A stretch of 64,000 nt of DNA from contig CAVRVY010000004.1 of assembly GCA_963724765.1 (NCBI GenBank), positions 224,001-288,000 on the forward strand. The letters run 5' to 3'. The position numbers and the translations under genes were made by a program. The stretch comes from an uncultured delta proteobacterium. Lineage in GTDB: Bacteria; Desulfobacterota; Binatia; Binatales; Binataceae. The number at the start of each line of letters is the position of its first letter. Position 1 is the stretch's first letter. The notes under the pieces are model-generated. The model saw nothing but the letters and a program-made list of their open reading frames with translations. It did no database searches and was not told where the DNA came from. Positions 2,448-15,881 of this stretch are shown piece by piece.

Positions 2448-2551
2448 AAGGCCGCGATTATACCATCATGGCGGCGCCGGACTTACTGGAAACCCGGCCG
2501 GGATTTGCCCCGGCCAGCCGGCGGGCGGCAAGCCAGGAGGGCTTCTTTACG

Positions 2552-3394
2552 ATGGGCAGGTTAGACGGCAAGGTTGCGGTGATAACCGGCGCGGCGAGCG
2601 GGATGGGCCGCGCAGCGGCAATACGCTTTGCGGGTGAGGGCGCAGCGGTCGTGGTCGCCGACCTCAACGACGAGGGCGGCGCGGCAGCGGTGCGCGAGTG
2701 CAAGGAAAACGGCGGCCGCGCGGTCTTTCAGAAGACCGACGTCACCAGCGAGGCCGGGATCAAGGCGATGATCGATCGTGCGGTCAAGGAATTCGACCGT
2801 CTCGATATCACCTTCAACAATGCCGGGCTGCCCGGCGCGCTGGGATCGATCGAGCAGACCAGCGTCGAGGACTGGGATCGCACCTTTGCGGTGCTGACGC
2901 GCGGCGTGTTCCTGGGGATCAAGCATTCGGTGGCCGAGATGCGCAAAGTTGGCGCCGGATCGATCATCTCGACCGCGTCGGTGGCGGGACTGGCGGGCGG
3001 CTACGGCCCGCACGCCTACAGCGCGGCCAAAGCGGGCGTGATCAATCTCACGCGCTCGGTCGCGCTCGAGGTCGCCAAGGACAAGATTCGCGTCAACTGT
3101 ATCTGCCCGGGCGGAATCAACACGCCGATTTTCAACTTCCTCACCTCCGACCGCGAGATGACGGGCAAGCTGCTCGGCCCGTTGCATCCGCTGCGCCGCG
3201 CGGGCCTGCCCGAGGACATCGCCAACATGGCGCTGTTCCTGGCCAGCGACGAGGCGGAATGGATCACCGGAGTCGCGATGGTGGTCGATGGCGGGCTGAC
3301 GGCCGGACGCGACATCTTTGGCGATCCGCAGTTCGGCGGCGGGATGTACTCGGCCAACGTGTACGTCGGCCCGTCGTTCGAGATTAAACGCTAG
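2552..3394 (+). CDS. Short-chain dehydrogenase/reductase (SDR)
   Basis: TGAASGMG, NNAG and YSAAK motifs; AGGAGG RBS before ATG 2552. Confidence 0.93.
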   Translation: MGRLDGKVAVITGAASGMGRAAAIRFAGEGAAVVVADLNDEGGAAAVRECKENGGRAVFQKTDVTSEAGIKAMIDRAVKEFDRLDITFNNAGLPGALGSIEQTSVEDWDRTFAVLTRGVFLGIKHSVAEMRKVGAGSIISTASVAGLAGGYGPHAYSAAKAGVINLTRSVALEVAKDKIRVNCICPGGINTPIFNFLTSDREMTGKLLGPLHPLRRAGLPEDIANMALFLASDEAEWITGVAMVVDGGLTAGRDIFGDPQFGGGMYSANVYVGPSFEIKR

Positions 3395-3625
3395 CGCCGG
3401 TTGTGCACGTGAGCAAACCGGGCGTCGGGCTTGATGCGTGGCCCTCGCGCAGGCGCTGGGCACAAACCATCATCGCCAAGGTGCCGTTCCAAGTTCCGCG
3501 CGGCACGCCCGAGCCGCGCGGCTGGCTCGTCGATAGGTTTCCGCGCTTTGCTACAGAAGAAGCCGTGCGCATGTGTTTCGATGCGTGGCTCGCGCGCCAA
3601 GCACCCACGCCCGATGGAGGGGCGA

Positions 3626-3653
3626 ACTTGACACGCGAAATACCATGTCAACT
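3626..3653 (+). repeat. dif-like 28-bp site 1 (ACTTGACACGC GAAATA CCATGTCAACT)
   Basis: Arms are imperfect inverted repeats (8/11) around a 6-bp core shared with six other sites. Confidence 0.6.
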
Positions 3654-3679
3654 GTGTACAGGGTGTGGGATAAATCCAA

Positions 3680-3957
3680 GTGGTTGACCCGAACGATCTG
3701 AGGCTCGCGCACAAGCACTGTTTCAAGAACCGTACGGAAGTGTTGGCAAGTGAAATGTGTGGTGCTTCTGCTGTTTGGACAATTATCCACCGTCACGTAT
3801 TTCCGAATGGACCATCTAGAGAGACGGGGAGCAGACCGCGCTATGTCCGATGTGCGGAACCGATTCTGTTACAGGTTTCGCTTCTGGATACCCAGTGACC
3901 ACGGAATGGCTCGACCGCATGGAAATGCGCTGGTTTGGCCTCAGGAGAGCGCGTTAA
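3680..3957 (+). pseudogene. Decayed small Cys-rich protein gene (AHKH..N...S..CG/CFCC...EW...TALCPxCGxDSV...SG.P.T...WF)
   Basis: The frame from GTG 3680 joins a -1 frame at about 3762, with an internal TAG at 3817-3819 and TAA at 3955-3957. The joined sequence has the paired Cys-motif pattern of a widespread uncharacterised ~100-aa family (recognised from memory). Confidence 0.7.
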
Positions 3958-3987
3958 CGTTCCAGACGGCATCAAGGAGATACCTGA

Positions 3988-4015
3988 AGTAGACTCACGA
4001 AATATTATGTCTGCT
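3988..4015 (+). repeat. dif-like site 2 (AGTAGACTCAC GAAATA TTATGTCTGCT)
   Basis: Same core; arms 7/11 inverted; TTATGT is XerD-arm-like. Confidence 0.6.
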
Positions 4016-4030
4016 TGCATACCCACCAGC

Positions 4031-4064
4031 GAAGAACGCGGCGGCCGATTCCGGCCCGCCGCGC
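4031..4064 (-). terminator. GC-rich hairpin downstream of paralog 1
   Basis: CGCGGCGGCCG-att-CCGGCCCGCCGCG stem followed by a pyrimidine run on the minus strand; repeated after all three paralogs. Confidence 0.6.
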
Positions 4065-4105
4065 TCACTGATTGTTCAGACGCCTTGGAAAATTAACGCC
4101 CCGGC

Positions 4106-4477
4106 TCAGCTCATCTCCGATATCTTCCCTTTCCACGAGCGCGCGGCCAGGTCGATCTCGCCCTCAGAAGCGAACCTGCGGCCATCCGAGATCTGAGTAA
4201 AGCCCTGCGTGCGCCACCGGTGTTTCCCGATGCTTTCAGTGGTTCCCTGACCGAAGCCGGTGAGGCCTTCGCCATTGTCCAGGTATGCTACTGCACAGTC
4301 ACTGTAAGTCCCGCCTTTGGGACCGCCGACGTAAGTCGCGGTGAGGAAAACGGCTCCGAACCCCGTCGCCGTCCCTTCCCAATTCGCCTGCGCAAGTACG
4401 CTGCCTGCTGGCCCAGGACTGTAGGTGACCGTCACGGCCTTGAACGAAAATTCTCCTAACGCTTTACCCGCTGCCAT
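4106..4477 (-). CDS. Hypothetical 123-aa beta-rich protein, paralog 1
   Basis: ATG 4477 with GGGAGG RBS; same length as and highly similar to 4711-5082 and 5756-6127. Confidence 0.88.
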   Translation of the reverse strand: MAAGKALGEFSFKAVTVTYSPGPAGSVLAQANWEGTATGFGAVFLTATYVGGPKGGTYSDCAVAYLDNGEGLTGFGQGTTESIGKHRWRTQGFTQISDGRRFASEGEIDLAARSWKGKISEMS

Positions 4478-4561
4478 GTTCTTGTCCTCCCTTGCGTCGC
4501 TAAGATGCTTGGCTAGCTGTAGTCCCTTGCCAGGCTTAAGGCGAACGCGCAGTGCCCGCAT

Positions 4562-4589
4562 AACTGGCTCTTGAAATATCATGTGTACA
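4562..4589 (+). repeat. dif-like site 3 (AACTGGCTCTT GAAATA TCATGTGTACA)
   Basis: Same GAAATA-YYATGT core. Confidence 0.55.
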
Positions 4590-4646
4590 TCCGTGGGCTT
4601 ATGGCTGTGCCACGCCCCGCCGCGAGCGGACACGCAAGACGCCAGC

Positions 4647-4681
4647 GAGAAGCGCGGCGGCCGATTCCGGCCCGCCGCGCT
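4647..4681 (-). terminator. GC-rich hairpin downstream of paralog 2
   Basis: AGCGCGGCGGCCG...CGGCCCGCCGCGCT, a copy of 4031-4064. Confidence 0.6.
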
Positions 4682-4710
4682 CACGACGCTCTCGAAAATT
4701 GACTCCCGGC

Positions 4711-5082
4711 TCAGCTCATCTCGAATATCGTCCCTTTCCACGAGCGCGAGGCCAGGTCCATCTCGCCCTCGCCGCGGACCCGACGACCGTCGGAGATTTG
4801 CACAAAGTTCTCCGTGCGCCACCGGTGTTTCCCGATGCTTTCATAGGTTCCCTGGCCAACTGCGGAGAGTCCGTCGCCATTGTCCAGGTATGCTGCCGCG
4901 CACCAACTGAAGGTCCCGTTCTTGGGGCCACCGACGTAGGTAGCCGTGGCGAAGACTGCTCCAAATCCCGTCGCCGTCCCTTCCCAATTCGTTTCCGCGA
5001 GGACGCTACCCCCCGGCCCAGGACTGTATCTGATGGTGATGGCCTTCAACGAAAATTCTCCTACCTGTTTACCCGATGCCAT
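4711..5082 (-). CDS. Hypothetical 123-aa beta-rich protein, paralog 2
   Basis: Intact ORF with RBS (AAGGGAG); NWEGTATGFGAVF, AYLDNG and RSWKG shared with the other paralogs. Confidence 0.88.
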   Translation of the reverse strand: MASGKQVGEFSLKAITIRYSPGPGGSVLAETNWEGTATGFGAVFATATYVGGPKNGTFSWCAAAYLDNGDGLSAVGQGTYESIGKHRWRTENFVQISDGRRVRGEGEMDLASRSWKGTIFEMS

Positions 5083-5164
5083 AGCTTGTTCTCCCTTACG
5101 TCGCTAAGACGTTAACCAGCCCTATTCCTATGCCAAGCTTAAGGCGAACGCGCAGTATGCCCAT

Positions 5165-5192
5165 AACGGGCACTTGAAATATTATGTCATCC
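5165..5192 (+). repeat. dif-like site 4 (AACGGGCACTT GAAATA TTATGTCATCC)
   Basis: Same core. Confidence 0.55.
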
Positions 5193-5409
5193 GAATCGAA
5201 CACGTTCGGCGAGAGGATGACCGCCTTCTAGCACAGTTGCAAAAGGACCATAACCTTTGTTGGCTATTTCGTTATTGTTGGGAGGGTTGTCTTCAGTCGC
5301 GCCGGTCTTCTGATATCGCGCTTATGATGGGTGTGATGAGCATCCCAGGGGGTCATTATTATTTGCCTGCGCTGGCATCGCGAGCGGCGTAGTGGCATTT
5401 AGGTGAGAC

Positions 5410-5437
5410 ACTTGGTACGCGAAATACTATGTGAATT
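5410..5437 (+). repeat. dif-like site 5 (ACTTGGTACGC GAAATA CTATGTGAATT)
   Basis: Same core; closely resembles site 1 although the flanking DNA is unrelated. Confidence 0.6.
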
Positions 5438-5457
5438 TGGCGAGATACCCATAGTTC

Positions 5458-5628
5458 ATGATACTCAAGGCATGCTGCATTTGCGGCCGCTCCGCTATGT
5501 TCGAATCTTCAGCATACGATTCACATTGTGAGAAGCACAGGAAGCATTGGGATCGTTTGATAAAAATGGATTTGCAGATGTTCGCAAGACTCGACCGCGT
5601 CGAAGGCGTCGGCAAAGGTCTGCGGTAG
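5458..5628 (+). CDS. 56-aa hypothetical protein with CxxC...CxxH Zn-finger-like pattern
   Basis: MILKACCICGRSAMFESSAYDSHCEKHRKHWDRLIKMDLQMFARLDRVEGVGKGLR*; fills the interval between sites 5 and 6; too short for the ORF track; no clear RBS. Confidence 0.5.
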   Translation: MILKACCICGRSAMFESSAYDSHCEKHRKHWDRLIKMDLQMFARLDRVEGVGKGLR

Positions 5629-5645
5629 ACGAGTTGAAGAGACCA

Positions 5646-5673
5646 CCTTGATGCACGAAATATTATGTATGCT
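5646..5673 (+). repeat. dif-like site 6 (CCTTGATGCAC GAAATA TTATGTATGCT)
   Basis: Same core; resembles site 2. Confidence 0.6.
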
Positions 5674-5687
5674 TGCTATCCGCCAGC

Positions 5688-5724
5688 GAAAAGCGCGGCG
5701 GCCGATTTCGGCCCCGCCGCGCTT
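5688..5724 (-). terminator. Intrinsic terminator-like hairpin downstream of paralog 3
   Basis: AAGCGCGGCGGCCG...CGGCCCCGCCGCGCTT with TTTT on the minus strand. Confidence 0.65.
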
Positions 5725-5755
5725 CACTGACGCTCTGGAAAATTGACGACCCGGC

Positions 5756-6127
5756 TCAGCTCATCTCGGATATCGTCCCTTTCCACGAGCGCGAGGCCAG
5801 ATTGATCTCGCCCTCAACAGCCATCCTTCTGCCATCCGAGAGCTGAACAAAGCCCTTCGAGCGCCACTGGTGTTTCCCGGCGCTTTCAGTGGTTCCCTGA
5901 CCGACGCCGGTAACAGAGTCGCCATTGTCTAGATATGCTATCCCACAGTCACTGTAACTTCCGCCTTTGCCGCCGCCGACGTAAGTCGCAGTGGCGAAGA
6001 CTGCACCGAACCCCGTAGCGGTCCCTTCCCAATTGGCATGCGCCAGTACGCTGCCTGCAGGCCCAGGGCTGTAGCTCACCGTCACGGCCTTGTACGAAAA
6101 TTCCCCTAATGCCTTACCCGATGCCAT
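5756..6127 (-). CDS. Hypothetical 123-aa beta-rich protein, paralog 3
   Basis: ATG 6127 gives a length identical to paralogs 1 and 2. Confidence 0.88.
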   Translation of the reverse strand: MASGKALGEFSYKAVTVSYSPGPAGSVLAHANWEGTATGFGAVFATATYVGGGKGGSYSDCGIAYLDNGDSVTGVGQGTTESAGKHQWRSKGFVQLSDGRRMAVEGEINLASRSWKGTISEMS

Positions 6128-6212
6128 ACGCTTCCACTTCCTTCGCGTCGCTACGACGCCAACCAACGCTACTCCTATTGCTCGGCTTTAAGCGAACGCG
6201 CAGTGCGCTCAT

Positions 6213-6240
6213 AACGGGCGCTTGAAATATTATGTCTACA
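6213..6240 (+). repeat. dif-like site 7 (AACGGGCGCTT GAAATA TTATGTCTACA)
   Basis: Same core. Confidence 0.55.
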
Positions 6241-6315
6241 TCTGTGGTACCATACCTGACCGACGCGCGTTCGTATGCAATGCCAGAAATCAAGCCTACG
6301 CGCGGAGCACCGCGC

Positions 6316-6491
6316 GAGATCCTTCGACTCCGCAGCTCTCACTCGGGATGACGCCGTGAGGCAAATTCGGTTCAGGGTGACCCTGAGCGGTAGCCGCCGT
6401 CCAGAATGACCGAAGAGGGGGACTCGCTTCGTTCAAAAATTCACCAACTCTCAGGATGCTGAAGAGACGGACTCGCGTTGCTCAGGATGAC
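6316..6491. repeat. Cluster of CTCAGGATGAC-like (GTCATCCTGAG family) REP/MITE-like half repeats
   Basis: Variants at 6342-6352, 6371-6381, 6400-6410, 6450-6460 and 6481-6491; reverse-complement copies at 49583 and 51442. Confidence 0.55.
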
Positions 6492-6593
6492 CTGAAGGGG
6501 TGGAATAAACGGTGGCCAAGCGGTGGTATCGAAAAAACCGCTTGACCGATCCCGCGCAATTGCGATGGGATGGCGTCCAACAGGGAGGAGATC

Positions 6594-7016
6594 ATGGCGG
6601 ATTTCAAAAAGATCAACGGCGCATGCTTTTGCGGAGAGAACCAGTTCGAGTTGACCCAGCCCGCAGTGGAAATGCATCACTGTCATTGCTCGATTTGCCG
6701 GCGGCTGCAGGGCGCGGCGTTTGTCACCCTCGCGATTTTTCCCCGCGCCGGCTTTCGCTGGACCAAGGGCGGCGACCTGCAAACCTTTAGCAGCTCAGCC
6801 CAGATTCATCGCAACCGATGCAAGAACTGCGGATCCACGCTCACGGTCGATGTCGATCCGATGCCCGACGTGCTGATAGTCACCCGCGCCAGCCTGCCGG
6901 CGGACGCCGAGCCCGGATATCCGCCCGCCACTCTGCGCCACGCCTATTGGCCCGACCATGTGCCGTGGGTGGAATTGGGCGACAAGCTGCCGCGCGTTGC
7001 CGGCTTCGATAAGTAA
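6594..7016 (+). CDS. GFA/CENP-V family zinc-binding protein
   Basis: GACFCG, CHCSICRR and CKNCGS motifs; GGAGG RBS. Confidence 0.9.
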   Translation: MADFKKINGACFCGENQFELTQPAVEMHHCHCSICRRLQGAAFVTLAIFPRAGFRWTKGGDLQTFSSSAQIHRNRCKNCGSTLTVDVDPMPDVLIVTRASLPADAEPGYPPATLRHAYWPDHVPWVELGDKLPRVAGFDK

Positions 7017-7099: not shown

Positions 7100-9358
7100 C
7101 TACTTGGGCTGGTCGGGGACGATCTTCAGGCTGCCCTGACGCGGCGCTGGCGCGGCGGCGCCGCTAGCGCCAGTTCCGCGGCCGCGGCCTTTGCCCCGTC
7201 CGCGCGGCAGCAATGATGGCTTCTCGCTCGCGTCTTTTACCTTGTGACGCTCGGCGCGCCCGCGCGCCGCCTCGCCTGCATGCTGATGTGCCGAGCCGGG
7301 CGGCTGCGGCGGGGCGGCCGCGGTCTCGCGCTTCTGGTCGAGTCCGAAGACCTGGCGCTCGAGGCGCTTGATCCGATCGCGCAGTTCGGCGGCGCGTTCG
7401 TATTCTAGTCGCTCCGCCGCTTCCATCATCTCCTGCCGAAGTCCCGTGATGCGGTCGGGCAGTTCGTGCGCCGCAATCAGTTCCGTGTCGGGCGGCGCGT
7501 CGTCGACCTCCGGCACCACGGCCCATTCGGGCGAATACATCTCGACCAGCGAGGCGTCGATCGCCTTCACGATCGACTGCGGCGTGATCCCGTGCTCCTC
7601 GTTATAAGCGACCTGCCGGGCGCGGCGGCGGTTGGTCTCCTCGATCGCCTTGCGCATCGAGTCGGTCATCGTGTCGGCGTACATGATGACCTTGCCCTCG
7701 ACGTTGCGCGCGGCGCGGCCGATGGTCTGGATGAGCGAGCGGGCCGAGCGCAGGTAGCCCTCCTTGTCGGCGTCAAGGATCGCGACCAGCGAAACCTCGG
7801 GCAGGTCGAGTCCCTCGCGCAGCAGGTTGATGCCGACCAGGACGTCGAACTCGCCCTTGCGCAGGCTCCGGATGATCTCGACGCGCTCGATGGTCTCGAT
7901 GTCCGAGTGCAGGTAGCGCACGCGCACGCCGAGGTCGTGGTAGTAGTCGGTCAGGTCCTCGGCCATCTTCTTGGTCAGGCAGGTGACGAGCACGCGCTCG
8001 CCGGCCTCGACCCGCTTGCGGATTTCGCCCAGCAGATCATCGACCTGTGTGCCCGCCTTGCGCACCTCGATCTCGGGATCGATTAGCCCGGTGGGACGGA
8101 TGAGCTGTTCGACCACCAGGCCGCCCGAGCTTTTGAGCTCGTAGTCGCCCGGCGTGGCCGAGACGTAAACCACCTGGCGCGCCAGCCCTTCCCATTCCTC
8201 GAAGTTGAGCGGGCGGTTGTCGAGCGCCGAGGGCAGGCGGAAGCCGAACTCGACCAGGGTCTGCTTGCGCGAGCGGTCGCCGCGGTACATCCCGCCAAGC
8301 TGCGGGACAGTGACGTGGCTCTCGTCGACGAACATCAGGAAGTCGCGCGGAAAGTAGTCGAGCAGCGTCGGTGGCGGCTGGCCGGGTGCGCGGCCCGTAA
8401 GATGGCGCGAGTAGTTTTCGATCCCCGGGCAAAAGCCCATCTCGGCCAGCAGTTCGAGGTCGTACATCGTGCGCTGCTCCAGGCGCTGGGCCTCGAGCAA
8501 TCGATTCTCGCTGCGGAAGAGCTCCAGCCGCTCCTTGAGCTCGCTGCGGATGTTGCGCACCGCCTCCTCCATCCGGTCCTCGGTAGTCACGTAGTGCGAG
8601 GCCGGATAGATGCATACGCTCTGGAGTTTGCGAATCACTTTGCCGCGCAGCGGATCGATCTCGTACAGCGCCTCGACCTGGTCGCCGAAGAACTCGACGC
8701 GCACCGCGCGGCTTTCTTCGTAGGCCGGGAAGACCTCGACGATATCGCCGCGCACCCGGAAAGTGCCGCGATGGAAGTCGTAGTCATTGCGCTGGTACTG
8801 GATGTCGACCAGCTTGCGCAGCACGCGGTCGCGTTCGATGGTCTGGCCTTCTTCGAGAAACGCCAGCATCTCGAAGTAGACCTCCGGCTCGCCCAGGCCG
8901 TAGATGCACGAGACCGAGGCGACGATCAGGACGTCGTTGCGCTCAAGCAGGGCCTTGGTGGCCGAGTGGCGCAGCTTGTCGATCTCGTCGTTGATGCTGG
9001 CGTCCTTCTCGATGTACGTATCGGTCGAGGGAACGTAGGCCTCGGGCTGGTAGTAGTCGTAGTAGGAGACGAAATAGCGGACAGCGTTGTCCGGGAACAG
9101 GCTCTTGAACTCGTTGTAGAGCTGGGCGGCGAGCGTCTTGTTGGGCGCGATCACCAGCGTGGGCTTGTTCACGTTGGCCACCACGTTGGCCATCGTGAAG
9201 GTCTTGCCTGAGCCGGTGACGCCGAGCAGCACCTGCTGATGCACGCCGTCGCGCACGTTGCGGGTCAGCGCCTCGATCGCGGCGGGCTGATCGCCCTCCG
9301 GACGATAGCCGGAGACCAGCCGAAAGATTCCTTCTTTACCGCGCGCCAACGAAAGCAC
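7100..9358 (-). CDS. uvrB: Excinuclease ABC subunit B
   Basis: [18 protein letters not shown] beta-hairpin, [13 protein letters not shown] and UVR domain. Confidence 0.97.
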
Positions 9359-9525: not shown

Positions 9526-9703
9526 TACCGGCGTAGCAATTAGGGTTGTCAACTCTATGCTTGGTTGGCGCCCGCCAAATGGCCCATAGCTGCGGCGGAT
9601 TTGTGTGTAGCGGTTCCCGCTGTGCTCAGCCGATTCGCTGAGCGGAATTGGCGTGACCGATTGCATCGCGCTTCGGCGCCCGGGCGAGATAAAGGAAAGG
9701 TGC

Positions 9704-10369
9704 ATGATAGGACGAAGACGAGGGAAGGGGCTCTGGGTGCTGTGGACTGCGGCTGCGATTACATTCGCCGGTTGCGGCATGACCACGGAGCAGAGGGATT
9801 ACACCATCTATGGTGCCGTGGCCGGTGCCGCAGTCGGCGGTGGTATCGGTGGCGGTGTATTTGCTGCCGATAACCACGATAATTGGCCCGCGATTCCGGC
9901 CGGCATCGTCGGTGGTGCAATCATCGGTGGAATTATCGGCTACCTGATAGCGCCTCCACCCCCACCGCCGCCTCCGCCGCCACCTCCTCCGCCCCCACCT
10001 CCTCCGCCGCCACCTCCTCCGCCGGCGCCAGAGAAGATAATCCTGCGTGGCGTCCACTTTGATTTCGACAAGTCAAACATCCGTCCGCAGGATGCGGCCG
10101 TACTCAATGAGGCCGCGGAAACCCTGAAGTCGCACTCGAACGTGACGGTCAACGTCAATGGCTATTGCGACGCGATCGGCTCGGTCAGGTACAACCTGCG
10201 GCTCTCCGAGCGCCGGTCAGACGCAGTCGTGAAGTATCTGGCCGACCATGGCGTGGCGGAAGGCCGCCTGAGCCCGCACGGCTATGGGAAGACGGACTTC
10301 GTCGCCACCAACAAGACCGCCGAAGGACGCGCCCAGAACCGCCGGGTCGAACTGGTGCCGAGCCAGTGA
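9704..10369 (+). CDS. OmpA-family lipoprotein with glycine zipper and 24-Pro linker
   Basis: Lipobox FAGC, GxxxG zipper, and OmpA-C domain (VHFDFDKS, NLRLSERRS, NRRVE). Confidence 0.93.
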   Translation: MIGRRRGKGLWVLWTAAAITFAGCGMTTEQRDYTIYGAVAGAAVGGGIGGGVFAADNHDNWPAIPAGIVGGAIIGGIIGYLIAPPPPPPPPPPPPPPPPPPPPPPPPAPEKIILRGVHFDFDKSNIRPQDAAVLNEAAETLKSHSNVTVNVNGYCDAIGSVRYNLRLSERRSDAVVKYLADHGVAEGRLSPHGYGKTDFVATNKTAEGRAQNRRVELVPSQ

Positions 10370-10546: not shown

Positions 10547-11428
10547 ATGAGTTACGTCAGGCAGGGTGGAAGCAGGCTGAGTGGAATGGCGGCGGGATTT
10601 GTTCTGTTGGGATTGGCTGCGCTTCCAATCACCGGATGCTCACAATTGACTAACCAGTCGGCAGATGAGGTGGCTGCATCCTCACTGTCTGGCTCTTCGA
10701 TGAAGGTGCAAGGCACCGTACCTGCGGGAGCCTCGACGAGCGCCGACGCCGCCAGCGTCCCGGCCGCGCCTGACGCGCAGGCCGCCGCTCCAAACGTGGC
10801 CGCGGCGGCCGCCGTTCCCGCGCCGACAATTCCTCCCGTGACCTCTCCTACGACCCCTGCCCTTGCGGCCGCCGCGCCGTTGGCTGCCGTTTTGCCGCCG
10901 AACCTCGGGCAGGCAAGTCCCAAGGCCACCGCTGTCATCGCAAGCACTGGCCCTACGGCACTGAACGTCGCCGGCGGCGGCAGTCCAGCCGTGGGTGTCG
11001 CGAGCACCGGCACTCCGGTCCTGAAAGGATTGAGCGGCAGCGGGATGCAGGGCACGGCGCAAACGCTCAACCCGGTCATGATGCGGGCGCTCAAGCAGTT
11101 CCAAGTCGCCAGCGCTGCCTTTCCTGGTTTCTGCCGCGACTGGGCGCACAAGCTGAGCGTGCGCGAGCACGACAACCTGGGGAACATCAAGTGGGTGATG
11201 CACGACGGATCCGAGACTGGAAACTATGTCGGCTACAGCCCGATCGACTCTTGCACCTGCAAAGAGGCGAGCAACGGAGTTGCAGTCGGCATACTCACCT
11301 ACAAGGAATTTGACTACACGCTGACCGGCAAGAGCGTCGAGGAAGCGAAGCATGCGACGCCGCACGCGACCGCGGTAGTCCCGACGCGCGAGATCTTCGC
11401 CTACGAGAAGGGCAAGTGGTTCTGGTAA
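10547..11428 (+). CDS. Hypothetical lipoprotein (Ala/Pro-rich linker plus C-terminal globular domain)
   Basis: Hydrophobic signal and ITGC lipobox; coding-like codon use. Confidence 0.8.
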   Translation: MSYVRQGGSRLSGMAAGFVLLGLAALPITGCSQLTNQSADEVAASSLSGSSMKVQGTVPAGASTSADAASVPAAPDAQAAAPNVAAAAAVPAPTIPPVTSPTTPALAAAAPLAAVLPPNLGQASPKATAVIASTGPTALNVAGGGSPAVGVASTGTPVLKGLSGSGMQGTAQTLNPVMMRALKQFQVASAAFPGFCRDWAHKLSVREHDNLGNIKWVMHDGSETGNYVGYSPIDSCTCKEASNGVAVGILTYKEFDYTLTGKSVEEAKHATPHATAVVPTREIFAYEKGKWFW

Positions 11429-11506
11429 GCCGGCGTGGCTGAAGTAGCCGGGATCCTGTTCTGCACGTTCATCATCGCGCAGGATGGATTTTGCTATACG
11501 GCACGC

Positions 11507-11689
11507 ATGTCCGCTGGACTGTATTGGTTGACCCGCCACGAGAGGCCCGGTCCTTCTACTCGCTACTCGCAAGCAGCCGTGAGATGGTACTTCGGACCTC
11601 GCGCCGTGATCCTGTGGACCTACCTTCTTCTGGGATTGCTCTTTGCCTCGACGGGGCTGTTCGGACCTTGTAACGGTTACCAGCACTAG
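11507..11689 (+). CDS. Small putative membrane protein
   Basis: One hydrophobic segment (VILWTYLLLGLLFASTGLF); start uncertain. Confidence 0.4.
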   Translation: MSAGLYWLTRHERPGPSTRYSQAAVRWYFGPRAVILWTYLLLGLLFASTGLFGPCNGYQH

Positions 11690-11715
11690 TGCCAATTCAG
11701 GCGCGCATCCCAGAT

Positions 11716-11934
11716 ATGGAAAAGATCAAAGTGATCCACGATGCCGTTGGACACACTCTCACGGTCTGGCTCGACGAACCCGCCAAAGAGAGCGTCTGCG
11801 AGGAGACGGCCGACGAGGTCGTGTTGATGAAGGACGTGGGCGGCCCGGTCATCGGCTTCGAGTTACTGGACTATCACCCTGCCCACGGCGAAGCCGTTAT
11901 CGCTGTCGAGACCGTGGTCCGTTCCGAACCCTAG
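11716..11934 (+). CDS. DUF2283-like small acidic protein
   Basis: KVIHD...TLTVWL...EE...VVLMKD..G.VIGFELL pattern. Confidence 0.7.
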   Translation: MEKIKVIHDAVGHTLTVWLDEPAKESVCEETADEVVLMKDVGGPVIGFELLDYHPAHGEAVIAVETVVRSEP

Positions 11935-11955
11935 CTTTGCCCGGTGGCGCGCTGC

Positions 11956-13179
11956 TCAGTTCAGGTCCTTGCTCGAGTACTCCAGGATCCGCCGCGCCAC
12001 GATGATCATGTTGATCTGCTGGGTGCCCTCGAAGATGTCGTTGATCTTCGCGTCGCGCATCCACTTCTCGACCAGGTTGCGGCGCGAGTAGCCGAGCGGC
12101 CCCAGCAATTCGACCGCCTTCTGCGTGATCAGCGTGACCGCGAGGCCCGCCTTGGCCTTGGCCATCGAGGCCTCCAGGCTGTTGCGCATTCCCATGTCGA
12201 GCATCCATGCCGCGCGCCAGGTGAGCAGGCGCGCCGCCTTGAGCTGGACTTCCACCTCCATGAAATCGCGCTCGACCGCGCTCAACCGCCGCGGCGAGAG
12301 CCCATAGCGAATTTCGACCTTCTGCTCGGCGAGGAAGTCGCGCACGAAATCGAGCGCCGCGCGTCCCACGCCAATCGCCATAGCCGCCACGATCGGACGG
12401 GTCGCATCGAACGTCGCCATCACGTCCTTGAAACCGCCGCCGTCGCGACTGACCTCGGCGCTGCCGAGCAGGTGGTCGGCCGGAACGCGGCAGTTGTCGA
12501 AAACCAGCGCCGCGGTGTCGCTCACCCGGATCCCGAGCTTCTTTTCCAGCCGCGCGACCGACATCCCGGGCGTGCCGTGCTCGACCACGAAGGGCTTTAT
12601 GCCGGGGCGGCCGGCGCTCTTGTCGACCGTCGCCCAGACCACCACGAAGCCCTCGGATTTCTCCACCGCCATCCAGCCCGAGGTGCAGAAAATCTTGTTG
12701 CCGTTGAGCACCCAGTGATCGCCGTCGCGGGTCGCGGTGGTGGTGATCGCGGCTGAATCCGAACCGCATCCGGGCTCGGTGATAGCCATCGCGCCCCATT
12801 TCGGTTTGCCGCCGCGAAACGGCGCGAGAAACCGCTGCTTCTGCTCAGGGGTGCCGGCCGCCATCACCGCCGCTCCGCCCAGTCCGGCATTGGGAATCGA
12901 CAGGAAGAGCCCGGCGTCGCCCCAGCACAGTTCCTCGGTGGTGGCGACGGTGTATACGTTGCGCATCTTCACGGCGCCCTGCCCGCTCGCGTCGCCGCCA
13001 GCCATCGGATCGCCGCCGGGCGCGGTGCTCGCGGCCCACATCGCGTTGAGGAAGTCCCACGGCTTGTCGTGCTCGCGCTCGTCGTATTCGCGCGAGATCG
13101 GCCGCATCATCTGTTCGGCCACGGTGTGGAAAAGCTCGATACGTTTTTGGGTCTGCGGGTCGATTTCGAAATCGATCAT
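11956..13179 (-). CDS. Acyl-CoA dehydrogenase
   Basis: AITEPGCGSD, LNGNKIF, RDAKINDIFEGTQQI. Confidence 0.94.
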   Translation of the reverse strand: MIDFEIDPQTQKRIELFHTVAEQMMRPISREYDEREHDKPWDFLNAMWAASTAPGGDPMAGGDASGQGAVKMRNVYTVATTEELCWGDAGLFLSIPNAGLGGAAVMAAGTPEQKQRFLAPFRGGKPKWGAMAITEPGCGSDSAAITTTATRDGDHWVLNGNKIFCTSGWMAVEKSEGFVVVWATVDKSAGRPGIKPFVVEHGTPGMSVARLEKKLGIRVSDTAALVFDNCRVPADHLLGSAEVSRDGGGFKDVMATFDATRPIVAAMAIGVGRAALDFVRDFLAEQKVEIRYGLSPRRLSAVERDFMEVEVQLKAARLLTWRAAWMLDMGMRNSLEASMAKAKAGLAVTLITQKAVELLGPLGYSRRNLVEKWMRDAKINDIFEGTQQINMIIVARRILEYSSKDLN

Positions 13180-13248
13180 GTTATTTGGCTCCGCGTGAAT
13201 TGTCTCCGCACTTGGCTCAAGCGGCTTAAGCTCAAAGTGCCGCGATAC

Positions 13249-14349
13249 TTAGACTGTGGCGAGCCCCTCAAGCGCGGAAAAGCCGCGCGCGTTGCGCAGC
13301 CACATCTCGACCGGATGCTCGCGGATGTAGCCGTGGCCGCCGAGCACCTGGACCGCGTTGTCAGTGACCTTGAGCGCCGAGGCTGCGATATAGTTGCGCG
13401 CGAGGTAGCTCTCCTTGTGCGCGTCCGCGCCGCGGTCGAGATGCCATGCGGCCTCCCATACCAGCAGTCGCGCCGCGTCGATCTCGATCGCCATGTCGGC
13501 CAGCATGAAGGCGACCGCCTGCTTGCTCGCGATCGGCACTCCGAAAGCTTTGCGCTCCTTGGCGTAATCGCGCGCGTAGTCAAAGGCGGCGTGCGCCACC
13601 CCGACGCCCATCGCCGCCATCGCGACCCGCGACTGGCTCATCGCGCGCCTGAAATTGGCTCCGCCCTCGGCGCCCAGATGTGCCTCGGCCCCGACGCGGC
13701 ATCCCTTGAGTTCGACCGCGAAGGTCTCGAGCGCCTTGAGCCCCATGTTTTTCTCGCGCTCGCCGACGCTCAGTCCCGGCGAGTCGCGCGCGAGCAAAAA
13801 GCCGTCGACACGGTCGTAGTTTGCGCTCGCCGCCCACACCAGCAGCGTGTCTGACGCGGCGGCCAGCGCGACCATGCACTTGACGCCGTCGAGCACGAAA
13901 CTGTTGCCGTCGCGGCGCGCCACGGTCGTCATCGCCGCCGGATCGAAATCCCATCGCGGCTCCATCAGTGCCGCGCTCGCGGCGGCGAAGCTTGGGCCGG
14001 TGAAGCGCTTGAGATAGCGCTGGCGCTGCTCGTCGGTCCCCATCTCGAGCACCGGGAAGGCCAGCAGGCGCGGCGCCAGCACGTGGGCCGCGATCGCGAG
14101 GTCGCCGTAGGCGAGTTCCTCGGCGATTATGGCGCCGGTCGTCGCCAGGCGGGTGTCGCCGTTGCCGCCGAGGCTCTCGGGAATCGGCCCCTGCACCAGC
14201 CCCAGTTGCCAAGCCTGCGCGACCAGCGCCGCCGGAATCTCGCCGCTCTCGTCGGCGGGCCGTGCCGCGGGACGAATCTGCTCGCGGGCGAACGCGCCGA
14301 CGGTGTCGCGGATCATCTGTTGTTCTTCGCTTAAATCGAAGCTCAGCAT
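13249..14349 (-). CDS. Acyl-CoA dehydrogenase (paired, possibly heteromeric partner)
   Basis: RKAFGVPIASKQ and QVLGGHGYIRE motifs; C-terminus ends shortly after LEG. Confidence 0.92.
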   Translation of the reverse strand: MLSFDLSEEQQMIRDTVGAFAREQIRPAARPADESGEIPAALVAQAWQLGLVQGPIPESLGGNGDTRLATTGAIIAEELAYGDLAIAAHVLAPRLLAFPVLEMGTDEQRQRYLKRFTGPSFAAASAALMEPRWDFDPAAMTTVARRDGNSFVLDGVKCMVALAAASDTLLVWAASANYDRVDGFLLARDSPGLSVGEREKNMGLKALETFAVELKGCRVGAEAHLGAEGGANFRRAMSQSRVAMAAMGVGVAHAAFDYARDYAKERKAFGVPIASKQAVAFMLADMAIEIDAARLLVWEAAWHLDRGADAHKESYLARNYIAASALKVTDNAVQVLGGHGYIREHPVEMWLRNARGFSALEGLATV

Positions 14350-14516
14350 GGTCGATTCAAACCGGTTCCATTTGAATTGCGCCGCGCGCGCGGGAAGTCA
14401 CAATGCCCAATGCCGGCGGGCTCGCGACGCGGCAGTCATGTCCGCAATACTAGCTTCGCGCACGCGATAACGCATCCGCAGTGCCGCCCGCTTCGGGACC
14501 TCACGAGCCGCGCCAG

Positions 14517-14678
14517 TCAGGCGCCGCTCTCCTCCTCTTCGCGCCGCAGTCGTTCGCGTTCGCGGGCGCGCCGGTACGTCGTCGGCGGTTCCTCCACCTT
14601 GGTCGGTGGCGGCACGGGCTTGCGCACCTTGCTCGACGGCGACTTGCGCTTGCGCCGGATCGGCTTGCGCGATCGCAT
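14517..14678 (-). CDS. 53-aa highly basic small protein
   Basis: MRSRKPIRRKRKSPSSKVRKPVPPPTKVEEPPTTYRRARERERLRREEEESGA*; GGAG before ATG; GC3-rich codons; not in the ORF track. Confidence 0.6.
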   Translation of the reverse strand: MRSRKPIRRKRKSPSSKVRKPVPPPTKVEEPPTTYRRARERERLRREEEESGA

Positions 14679-14729
14679 GCTCCGCAATACTAATCCGAGA
14701 ATCGAGTAAAGCCAGCCCGGAAAGTAGCG

Positions 14730-15530
14730 CTACGTCACAAAGCGCCCAAGAAAGCTGAGCTGCAGGCCGGTGACCGAGCCGCCGGCGGCGCGACGCGAAA
14801 AGTAGCGCTCGGACTCGCACTTGGTGCACGGCCCTACCTTCTGGATTCCCTCGCGCTCGAGACCCGCCGCGGCAAGTTGATCGGTGACGATCCCGCGGAG
14901 ATCGAGGTAAGCTTTGCCCGCGTGATCGCTCGGATGGACATGTGTGTGAGCGCGCTCGAAACGGCGCTCGAAGCGCCTGGCCAACTCGTCGTCGACCTCG
15001 TAGCAGCACGGGCCTATCGAGGGACCCAGCAGCGCGCGAATGGCGCTCGCGCGCGCCCCCTGCCGCACCATGGCGCGTACGCCCGCCCCGGATATCCCGG
15101 CCAGCGTCCCGCGCCATCCCGCGTGCAGGGCCGCAATCACGCCCCGCTCCGTGTCGGCCAGCAGTACCGGCACGCAGTCGGCGGTGAAGATGCAGAGCAC
15201 CACCCCGGGCATCGCAGTGACCAGCCCGTCGCCCTCGGGACGCGGGTCGGCGTCGGCGCGCGGACCTACGGTATAGATGGCCTTGCCATGGACCTGCTTG
15301 AGCTGGGCGAAGCGCACCCCGCGCGGCATCAACCGGCGCGCCCGCTGCCAGTTGACGTCGACCGAGCGCGAGTTGTCGCCGGCCCAGTACGAAAGATTGA
15401 GCGAAGCATAGGGGCCGCGGCTTAAGCCGGCCTCGCGGCCCAAAAAGCCATGACAAAGCGTGGGCTCGTCCCAGACCTGAAGAACCGGGGGAACCGGCGG
15501 AAGCGATGTAGCTCGGCGAAGCGCGCGCAC
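14730..15530 (-). CDS. pgeF: Peptidoglycan editing factor PgeF (YfiH/laccase-domain)
   Basis: QVHG, TADCVP, HAGWRG, GPSIGPCCYEV and YFSRR motifs. Confidence 0.92.
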   Translation of the reverse strand: MRALRRATSLPPVPPVLQVWDEPTLCHGFLGREAGLSRGPYASLNLSYWAGDNSRSVDVNWQRARRLMPRGVRFAQLKQVHGKAIYTVGPRADADPRPEGDGLVTAMPGVVLCIFTADCVPVLLADTERGVIAALHAGWRGTLAGISGAGVRAMVRQGARASAIRALLGPSIGPCCYEVDDELARRFERRFERAHTHVHPSDHAGKAYLDLRGIVTDQLAAAGLEREGIQKVGPCTKCESERYFSRRAAGGSVTGLQLSFLGRFVT

Positions 15531-15598
15531 TCGGTTGTCCGGTACCGGAAGGTTAACCTATAATTCTGATCTTTGGAATTCGCGCGCGGGGTCGCCCT

Positions 15599-15820
15599 AT
15601 GAATGGCTACGAATATCTCCTCGAACGTAATCGCCTGATGTACAGGCTGGAAGACGACCTGGCGCGGTTGCGGGACCTGCCTGCGGCCGAGCGCCAGGAG
15701 AAAACCGCACGCCTGCAAGGCGCCTTCGACATCAGGCTGGCCGAGCTTTACGCCAAGGTCGCCAACGAATACCCGGGCGAGCGGCGCAAGAAAGCCCGCC
15801 CATTGGCAGACCCACGCTAA
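15599..15820 (+). CDS. Hypothetical helical protein (73 aa)
   Basis: ATG start, coding-like codon bias, upstream of uvrA. Confidence 0.65.
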   Translation: MNGYEYLLERNRLMYRLEDDLARLRDLPAAERQEKTARLQGAFDIRLAELYAKVANEYPGERRKKARPLADPR

Positions 15821-15881
15821 CCAACGGACCGGCAGCCGTCCGTCGGCGCCCACCTTCGTCCAGGAACCAGAGTAAAAAGCA

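Follow-up and report, generated by a model that had tools for sequence, protein, structure and literature searches.

What are seven directly repeated 28-bp sites, each resembling a chromosomal dif site, doing around single short genes in a bacterial chromosome? The sites lie in a 64-kb stretch of DNA from an uncultured delta proteobacterium of the family Binataceae (the window, C4:224001-288000, of a 5.4-Mb assembly in four contigs; we code this genome G000 and its relatives G001 onward). We consider it probable that they are the attachment sites of small Xer-dependent cassettes, each made of one short gene and one 28-bp dif-like site and similar to the integrative mobile elements that exploit Xer (IMEX). 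The array is well supported by comparative sequence evidence as a genuine Xer/dif-type cassette array, and this evidence suggests that the bacterium, an uncultured soil and peat organism, shuffles single genes by its housekeeping Xer machinery and not by a dedicated integrase.

An earlier examination of the letters of the window alone (the sequence-only reading) had placed the sites at 3626, 3988, 4562, 5165, 5410, 5646 and 6213. These starts were confirmed by the 12-mer GAAATAYYATGT, which has seven matches in the window, on the + strand only (3637, 3999, 4573, 5176, 5421, 5657 and 6224), compared to a mean of 0.00 and a largest count of 0 in 100 dinucleotide-preserving shuffles of the window. 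The motif occurs nowhere else in the window, as had been stated, and the measured start-to-start spacings of 362, 574, 603, 245, 236 and 567 bp agree with the range of 236-603 bp given before. Upon aligning the seven sites with 40-nt flanks, we observed that the invariant columns consist of a G, a C, then the central hexamer GAAATA, as claimed, and then ATGT, with conservation across all seven limited to ~28 bp and pairwise identity beyond the arms of 0.24-0.41 (10-nt bins). Each site keeps the 6-bp central region of the host dif and the inner XerD arm YYATGT; on the XerC side, the arm is specific to the cassette and has no canonical CATAA. A hand count returned the same inverted-arm matches as before (8/11 at site 1 and 7/11 at site 2); the description of sites 1 and 5 as near-identical was overstated, with 23/28 positions matching (left arm 9/11, core 6/6, right arm 8/11). 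A position weight matrix (PWM) built from 38 distinct sites holds 1.6-2.4 bits per position in the core and inner right arm and 0.1-1.1 bits per position in the left arm, and it scored the seven window sites at 30.7-38.7 bits, as high as sites at dif. GC content across 3600-6600 is 0.49-0.64, compared to 0.65-0.72 in the flanking genes.

Sequence comparison leads us to identify the invariant hexamer of the array as the central region of the host dif. This site (GCTTCGCATAA-GAAATA-TTATGTCAACT, with a canonical XerC-type arm) is located at C4:185,898, 42 kb from the window array and at the cumulative GC-skew maximum of the contig (~180 kb). The polarity of GGGNAGGG, which resembles the FtsK-orienting polar sequences (KOPS), flips at this site (22 + and 3 - on the left, 5 + and 18 - on the right), and the 8-mer that a de novo search gave as the most polarised, GGGCAGGG, switches strand between 177,508 and 189,953. 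In 15 of 17 genomes of the genus, GCATAA-N6-TTATGT has exactly one copy, with GAAATA as central hexamer in 13 and GAAACA in two (the dif of G013, at L047 9640, and that of G010, in L022), so the hexamer is polymorphic in the genus. Together, the skew maximum, the KOPS switch and the single-copy pattern in the genus identify the C4:185,898 site as the chromosome's dif; the skew terminus, polarity switch and true dif that the sequence-only reading had proposed to locate all coincide near this position. The host dif has the same C arm as published Acinetobacter sites, and 9/11 positions of its D arm agree with TTATGTTAAAT (Table 5 of PMC10132070).

Genome-wide, GAAATAYYATGT has 14 exact matches and its reversed control 0; seven of these belong to the window array, four form the dif cluster on the opposite strand (C4:175,970-185,898) and three are singletons. 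The earlier reading had named a scatter of the motif upstream of genes throughout the genome as evidence to the contrary, and we found 11 of the 14 matches in two clusters. A PWM scan of the genome likewise returned 14 matches scoring at least 24 bits and no reversed-control match scoring at least 20, again with seven in the window and four in the dif cluster.

Where would the recombinase come from? The window was predicted to encode none, and indeed 0 of the 15 genomic PF00589 matches fall within C4:224001-288000. An XerC-like protein (TIGR02224, 305.7 bits) and an XerD-like protein (PRK00283, 322.5 bits, above the cut-off) are encoded on other contigs, at C3:1107049-1107951 (-) and C2:372942-373943 (+) respectively, and FtsK with its gamma domain is also encoded elsewhere in the genome. 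These two Xer-like proteins, the two of the 15 PF00589 matches that were scanned with the integron-integrase model TIGR02249, match it weakly, at 127-133 bits (cut-off 265). Collectively, the match of core and right arm to a single-copy host dif and the presence of XerC- and XerD-like genes elsewhere support the proposal of an Xer-type cassette array.

The intervals between the sites hold, as described before, three intact minus-strand paralogs of a 123-aa gene and a 56-aa open reading frame (ORF); the "decayed Cys-rich gene" and the "membrane-protein remnant" could not be confirmed (ORFs of 72 and 80 aa between s1 and s2 and of 72 aa between s4 and s5, no Pfam match at E<=0.1). The sequence-only reading had also named breakpoints away from the sites as evidence to the contrary, and homology between cassette copies, both within and across genomes, stops at GAAATA; neither of these two checks thus spoke against the proposal. 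The promoter-side end of the paralog cassette (...gcgcagtgcgctcat-AACGGGCRCTT, followed directly by GAAATA) is kept in eight sites from four genomes with unrelated DNA to its right, and the terminator-side end (GAAATA followed directly by TTATGTCTGCT-tgc...gcgcggcggccgattccgg) is kept in eight sites from five genomes with unrelated DNA to its left. Identity among the eight promoter-side ends is 0.86 over the first 10 nt on the cassette side and 0.44-0.61 over the next 50 nt, compared to 0.23-0.30 on the far side beyond the right arm; the corresponding values for the eight terminator-side ends are 0.92, 0.41-0.68 and 0.24-0.32. The far-side identities of both groups are at chance level. Elsewhere in G000, far from dif, a solitary paralog cassette at C3:832250-832920 has a terminator-side site only, its upstream end having decayed, and a lone promoter-side half-cassette end lies downstream of an unrelated gene at C2:291700-291760.

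The same kind of cassette is found beside dif itself. In the G000 dif cluster, dif is followed on its XerD-arm side by three more sites in the same orientation; a fourth copy of the 123-aa-gene cassette lies between sites A and B of this cluster, and the other segments contain IS1595- and IS3-family insertion sequences (IS). Among the 12 genus genomes for which at least 14 kb around dif was fetched, eight (G000, G002, G003, G004, G005, G013, G014 and G016) have one to five extra same-oriented sites at dif, on the XerD-arm side in 8/8, and the 123-aa-gene cassette also adjoins dif in G005 (two copies), G014 and G015. In Vibrio cholerae IMEX arrays, each integration regenerates dif at one end and leaves tandem same-oriented sites (PMC9226527), and the dif-side layout in this genus fits that one-sided rule.

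The IS1595-family elements show a placement of their own. Their ends lie 2-6 bp beyond an XerD arm, which is that of the canonical dif in G000, G003, G004, G005, G013 and G016 and that of array sites in G014 and G016 (L009, which is G000:C4:170001-190000, at 11066-15879; also L037, L039, L047, L049, L050 and L053), with inverted repeats of two subtypes, GGGGACTAGGTGAATGTTGACAC and GGCGATTAGCCGGAAGTTGACAG. This resembles the dif targeting of the dif-hunting IS1202 family of Acinetobacter, which inserts 5 bp from the XerC side (PMC10132070), but involves a different IS family and the opposite arm; our literature search found no published link between IS1595 and dif. Sites whose left arm is CAGTTGCACGA (L009 6575-6615 and 11018-11058, L047 near 1869, L039 near 9497) carry a conserved inner segment of ~50 nt with an inverted copy of the XerD arm (GTTGACATAA) 19 bp away from the site, followed by an IS1595 inverted repeat. 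The inverted copy may be an accessory XerD-binding site or a footprint of IS target choice.

Given that arrays in this genus usually sit at dif, how did one come to lie 42 kb away, without a canonical dif and in the opposite orientation? The array occupies the locus uvrC-SDR-GFA-uvrB, between a short-chain dehydrogenase (SDR) gene and a GFA-family gene. Homology with 11 relatives stops at 3395, the stop codon of the SDR gene, and, in the four relatives whose fetched locus reached the GFA side, restarts just upstream of the GFA-family gene, at ~6533; in G010 it restarts at 7101. The gap is free of sites in G013 (130 bp) and in G006, G009, G002 and G010 (~300-500 bp), and in G001 and G004 it holds other sites and cassettes oriented as in G000; the half-site flank nearest to GFA (at s7) is common to G000 and G004. 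The comparison of the uvrB-uvrC interval among relatives that the sequence-only reading had proposed therefore reveals a variable locus, empty in some relatives and with different cassettes in G001 and G004.

In G005, G015 and G016, GFA-uvrB directly adjoins the dif array and uvrC-SDR lies ~40 kb off, across dif; the DNA that G000 has left of dif stands beyond SDR in G005. This gene order indicates that the block comprising the dif array, the 40 kb, uvrC and SDR is inverted in these genomes, and the GFA-side flank that G005 and G015 share points to a single event in these two. It is probable that the window array formed at dif and moved later, when the terminus-proximal block inverted, as opposed to being built in place. 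If this block inverted a second time and one end of the inversion fell inside the array, the order seen in G000 would result: a dif cluster in one orientation and, beside GFA-uvrB, a remaining array in the other. A third configuration is present in G007 (C3; L044, L045 and L046), where SDR-uvrC is ~40 kb from dif on one side and GFA-uvrB is ~91 kb from it on the opposite side; the break is again at the SDR-GFA junction, and no sites were detected at either end.

Part of the stretch occurs in 16 public runs, and we compared it with the contigs of four metagenomes among them (X1, X2, X3 and X5), of which X1 is possibly the window's own sample and hence not counted as independent. Contigs of X2, X3 and X5, from three other studies, span the junctions s3, s4, s5 and s6 with 100% identity, demonstrating that the array is real, stable in nature and no assembly artefact.

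The three window paralogs of the 123-aa gene are 73-80% identical to one another, and all 15 of 15 pairs of copies of this gene have a ratio of nonsynonymous to synonymous divergence (dN/dS) of 0.17-0.37, from which we take the cargo to be under purifying selection, functional and old. Divergence at synonymous sites (dS) among the window paralogs is 0.33-0.78, and paralog 1 is closest to the G001 copy (dS 0.19); the paralogs are thus old relative to each other, which argues against recent duplication in place.

How might Xer recombination assemble such an array? A circular cassette with one site would pair with a resident site, XerD would bind the conserved arm and cooperatively recruit XerC to the weak arm, and strand exchange would proceed across the identical central region, placing the cassette between two hybrid sites in direct orientation. 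Repeated rounds would yield a tandem array in which each cassette is separately excisable, and the usual place for this in the genus would be the chromosomal dif, on its XerD-arm side. We infer the acting enzyme and the order of strand exchange from sequence comparison, as we do the inversion history and the present activity of the sites. More tentatively, and with rather less confidence than an even chance, the genus as a whole might run an integrase-free chromosomal cassette system in which XerCD captures, stacks and releases cassettes at dif, and in addition flips a 40-kb terminus-proximal segment by way of inverted, split-off arrays. Both configurations of this segment do occur in the genus.

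Several observations weigh against capture by Xer recombination. The PWM scores its own training sites and is partly circular, with only the C3:91630 site, which adjoins a tRNA gene and an island, recovered independently. The CATAA end of the canonical XerC arm is missing from the left arms, leaving XerC binding there only putative, and in G014 (L050) a dif with GAAATA stands next to array sites with GAAACA (6844, 7307 and 9961), so that strict identity of the central region does not hold everywhere. No homologs of cassettes a, d and e (Table 1) were found in the 24 loci searched or elsewhere in the genome, and these three are only putatively mobile. In nine more distant loci, outside the genus, the 123-aa gene is not flanked by sites (0 PWM matches of at least 14 bits), which would make the cassette form a local capture. 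The empty loci of five relatives contain no target-like site and the SDR-side inversion junction of G005 contains no site (no PWM match of at least 6 bits in either case); in-place integration and Xer-mediated inversion are therefore both hypothetical. The genus genomes are also related to one another, and with 0/10 inner branches well supported in an SDR tree of 13 genomes, the counts above are not counts of independent events. Finally, no credible excision or circle junction was seen in the contigs of the four runs: the four listed joints have sides of 21-40 nt or fall on a 31-mer shared by the paralogs, contigs cannot show rare forms, and parts of the stretch that contigs leave uncovered carry no meaning for the presence or absence of joints.

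Some of these points would also be expected if the sites record past Xer recombination at dif and became inert, inherited relics after the 42-kb displacement into the right replichore. In line with this, the contigs of the four runs contain no excision joint, the s3-s6 junctions are identical across three other studies, and the window array is distant from the point of KOPS convergence, at which FtsK activates XerD. Non-dif sites of relatives have also decayed (G016 S1 and S2 score 21.4 and 20.1 bits, G001 u2 18.2 bits), and the last G001 site reads GAAATG and has lost its right arm. The window, however, retains seven perfect cores, in sites that score as high as those at dif, despite the cassette-gene dS given above, which suggests that the sites are maintained, and the same locus holds different cassettes in G000, G001 and G004. 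We therefore regard wholly inert relics as unlikely, though they are the most serious competitor to an array of Xer-dependent cassettes.

A dedicated tyrosine recombinase encoded elsewhere, whose site resembles dif or evolved from it, could act in place of XerC and XerD. The genome does hold 13 further PF00589 matches besides the two Xer-like genes, and the left arms are unlike XerC arms; however, the sites agree with the host dif in core and right arm, further sites stand directly beside dif and to one side of it in 8/12 genomes, and no recombinase gene is present in the window or travels with the cassettes. This makes a dedicated enzyme a distinctly improbable source of the array.

We give very little credence to the idea that the motif is a promoter or operator of the paralog family, such as a minus-strand -10-like TAATAT or a transcription-factor site. 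Three of the seven sites do lie 85-90 nt upstream of paralog start codons, and a -10-like hexamer can be seen by eye within ACATAATATTTC, but the motif also follows each paralog on its downstream side and adjoins unrelated DNA, has the same sequence as the dif core, shows one-sided homology at that core and is not scattered through the genome. A scan of 3300-6700 returned 0 sigma-70 promoters and 0 terminators, and on the genome distribution, the one-sided homology and this empty sigma-70 scan we rejected the promoter or operator. Ends of transposable elements (IS or miniature inverted-repeat transposable elements, MITE) or integron attC sites can be dismissed with as little hesitation: IS1595-family elements adjoin several dif-cluster sites, but their inverted repeats are different sequences outside the 28-bp sites, which led us to reject IS ends, all seven sites are direct and not inverted pairs, the window cassettes encode no transposase, and the sites conserve only ~28 bp without a long imperfect palindrome in a genome whose two Xer-like proteins, the two of 15 PF00589 matches scanned, stay below the TIGR02249 cut-off.

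An Xer-dependent cassette array thus invites comparison with known Xer-exploiting elements. Like the Vibrio cholerae IMEX of the TLC/CTX/RS1 type, which have no integrase of their own and a site that mimics the host dif (PMC9226527), the cassettes here encode no recombinase and carry a host-dif-like 11-6-11 site, with a degenerate left arm. The Vibrio arrays, according to the same source, consist of tandem same-oriented sites with a functional dif at one end, the layout seen beside dif in this genus. In contrast, the known IMEX are phages, satellites or large islands, whereas the units here measure 236-603 bp, hold one small gene or none and are without replication or phage functions. The degenerate arm here is the XerC-side arm, whereas in TLC it is the XerD arm (same source), and the window array lies inverted at 42 kb from dif, although dif-side placement is seen for the same cassette type in the G000 dif cluster, G005, G014 and G015.

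The dif modules of Acinetobacter (pdif or xrs, on Rep_3 plasmids and one reported chromosome) are likewise small modules bounded by 28-bp XerC/XerD-type sites. Their XerC arms diverge from dif more than their XerD arms, with cooperative binding (bioRxiv version of PMC11705084), and the XerC-side arm is also the more divergent in our 38-site PWM. Multi-module arrays are described there too, including a chromosomal "dif module island" away from the main dif (PMC12907356), as is the case for the window array. However, the analogy with pdif sites drawn by the sequence-only reading fails on orientation. Acinetobacter sites alternate between C/D and D/C, and a single module is inversely flanked and for this reason cannot excise (PMC13141974); all seven sites here are direct, so each cassette could excise alone. 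Acinetobacter spacers vary, whereas the central hexamer here is invariant and that of the host dif, and the two systems further differ in phylum, chromosomal setting and cargo, which here includes no resistance or toxin-antitoxin genes.

The term "integron-like" holds for topology only: single-gene cassettes with one site each stand in tandem, bounded by direct sites and in principle individually excisable. There is no intI, attI or Pc here and no tyrosine recombinase in the 64-kb window, and the sites are 28-bp dif mimics and not attC hairpins, which are imperfect palindromes of 55-140 bp. Cargo genes are found on either strand, and every paralog comes with an upstream region and a hairpin of its own.

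Hijacking of Xer is already known from phages and satellites at dif in Vibrio and others and from the plasmid dif modules of Acinetobacter. The units described here are of integron-cassette size, chromosomal and in a lineage far from model organisms; the literature searched, outside subscription journals and supplements, described no non-phage chromosomal cassettes of one gene each with dif-like sites in direct repeat around them, and contained no paper pairing "Binatia" with "dif". If the array is active, gene-cassette capture can evolve without a dedicated integrase, the left arms offer a natural test bed for the tolerance of Xer for degenerate XerC arms, and Xer sites would be linked to large inversions around the terminus. 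Should the flipping of the 40-kb segment also be real, an integron-like cassette economy and a programmed terminus inversion would be built wholly on dimer-resolution machinery. The recipe used here, to locate the single-copy dif and then same-core sites in tandem, is general and could be used across phyla.

Table 1. The seven sites, the DNA between them and the flanking features, in window coordinates.
Feature	Position	Strand	Description
Site s1	3626..3653	+	ACTTGACACGC-GAAATA-CCATGTCAACT; left end of array; left arm non-canonical; PWM 35.5 bits
Site s2	3988..4015	+	AGTAGACTCAC-GAAATA-TTATGTCTGCT; right arm and flank are the conserved terminator-side end of the paralog cassette
Site s3	4562..4589	+	AACTGGCTCTT-GAAATA-TCATGTGTACA; left arm and flank form the promoter-side end conserved in the paralog cassette; contigs of runs X3 and X5 bridge it at 100% identity
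Site s4	5165..5192	+	AACGGGCACTT-GAAATA-TTATGTCATCC; bridged by X1 and X5 contigs
Site s5	5410..5437	+	ACTTGGTACGC-GAAATA-CTATGTGAATT; bridged by a 577-nt X2 contig
Site s6	5646..5673	+	CCTTGATGCAC-GAAATA-TTATGTATGCT; bridged by X2 and X3 contigs
Site s7	6213..6240	+	AACGGGCGCTT-GAAATA-TTATGTCTACA; the last G004 site at this locus shares the right arm and flank
Cassette a	3654..3987	.	334 bp between sites; broken or short ORFs only (72, 80 aa), no family
Cassette b cargo, paralog 1	4106..4477	-	123 aa; predicted 8-strand beta protein; GC-rich hairpin after stop codon
Cassette c cargo, paralog 2	4711..5082	-	123 aa
Cassette d	5193..5409	.	217 bp between sites; no convincing gene
Cassette e cargo	5458..5628	+	56-aa Cys/His-rich ORF, no family
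Cassette f cargo, paralog 3	5756..6127	-	123 aa
Variable DNA left of s1	3396..3625	.	Absent from relatives at the locus; 3415-3581 is 88% identical to a stretch inside the G016 dif array
Variable DNA right of s7	6241..6532	.	First ~100 nt homologous to DNA right of the last site of G004; holds a ~55-nt repeat at 6298-6352
SDR gene, conserved left flank	2468..3394	+	Homology with relatives stops at 3395
GFA-family gene, conserved right flank	6570..7016	+	Homology with relatives restarts at 6533

What the cassettes encode was assessed by family and structure searches. Neither the 123-aa paralog nor the 56-aa ORF has a match in Pfam, NCBIfam or PADLOC, and Rfam returned 0 matches at E<=0.1. The ~425 relatives of the 123-aa protein include none that is named and none with a Pfam domain; the carriers of its gene are metagenome-assembled genomes of Candidatus Binataceae or uncultured delta proteobacteria, with distant homologs in Acidobacteria. 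The model of the 123-aa protein has eight beta strands (pLDDT 90.2), and a Foldseek search of the PDB returned nothing at E<=0.001; its best structural resemblances, all at E > 0.001 and with TM-scores of 0.60-0.72, are to the beta-barrels of unknown function 3c5o, 3g7g and 2q03 and to the DUF3237 entry 9m2z. In the ESM Atlas this protein fell in "hypothetical protein" clusters only, with DUF3237 at 0.77 as a lead only, and the score of 0.88 for the 56-aa ORF is uninformative.

Two further features of the window stand apart from the cassettes. The ~55-nt repeat at 6298-6352 (...GATCCTTCGACTC...CTCGGGATGAC...) is dispersed, being found at several places in the genome and in many relatives, with a summed contig depth in the metagenomes of 147-328 compared to ~2-5 for its neighbours, and looks like a repetitive extragenic palindromic (REP) or MITE-like element. 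An OmpA-like ORF at 9653-10369 encodes ~28 consecutive prolines from a CCN repeat, with a poly-Gly ORF on the opposite strand.

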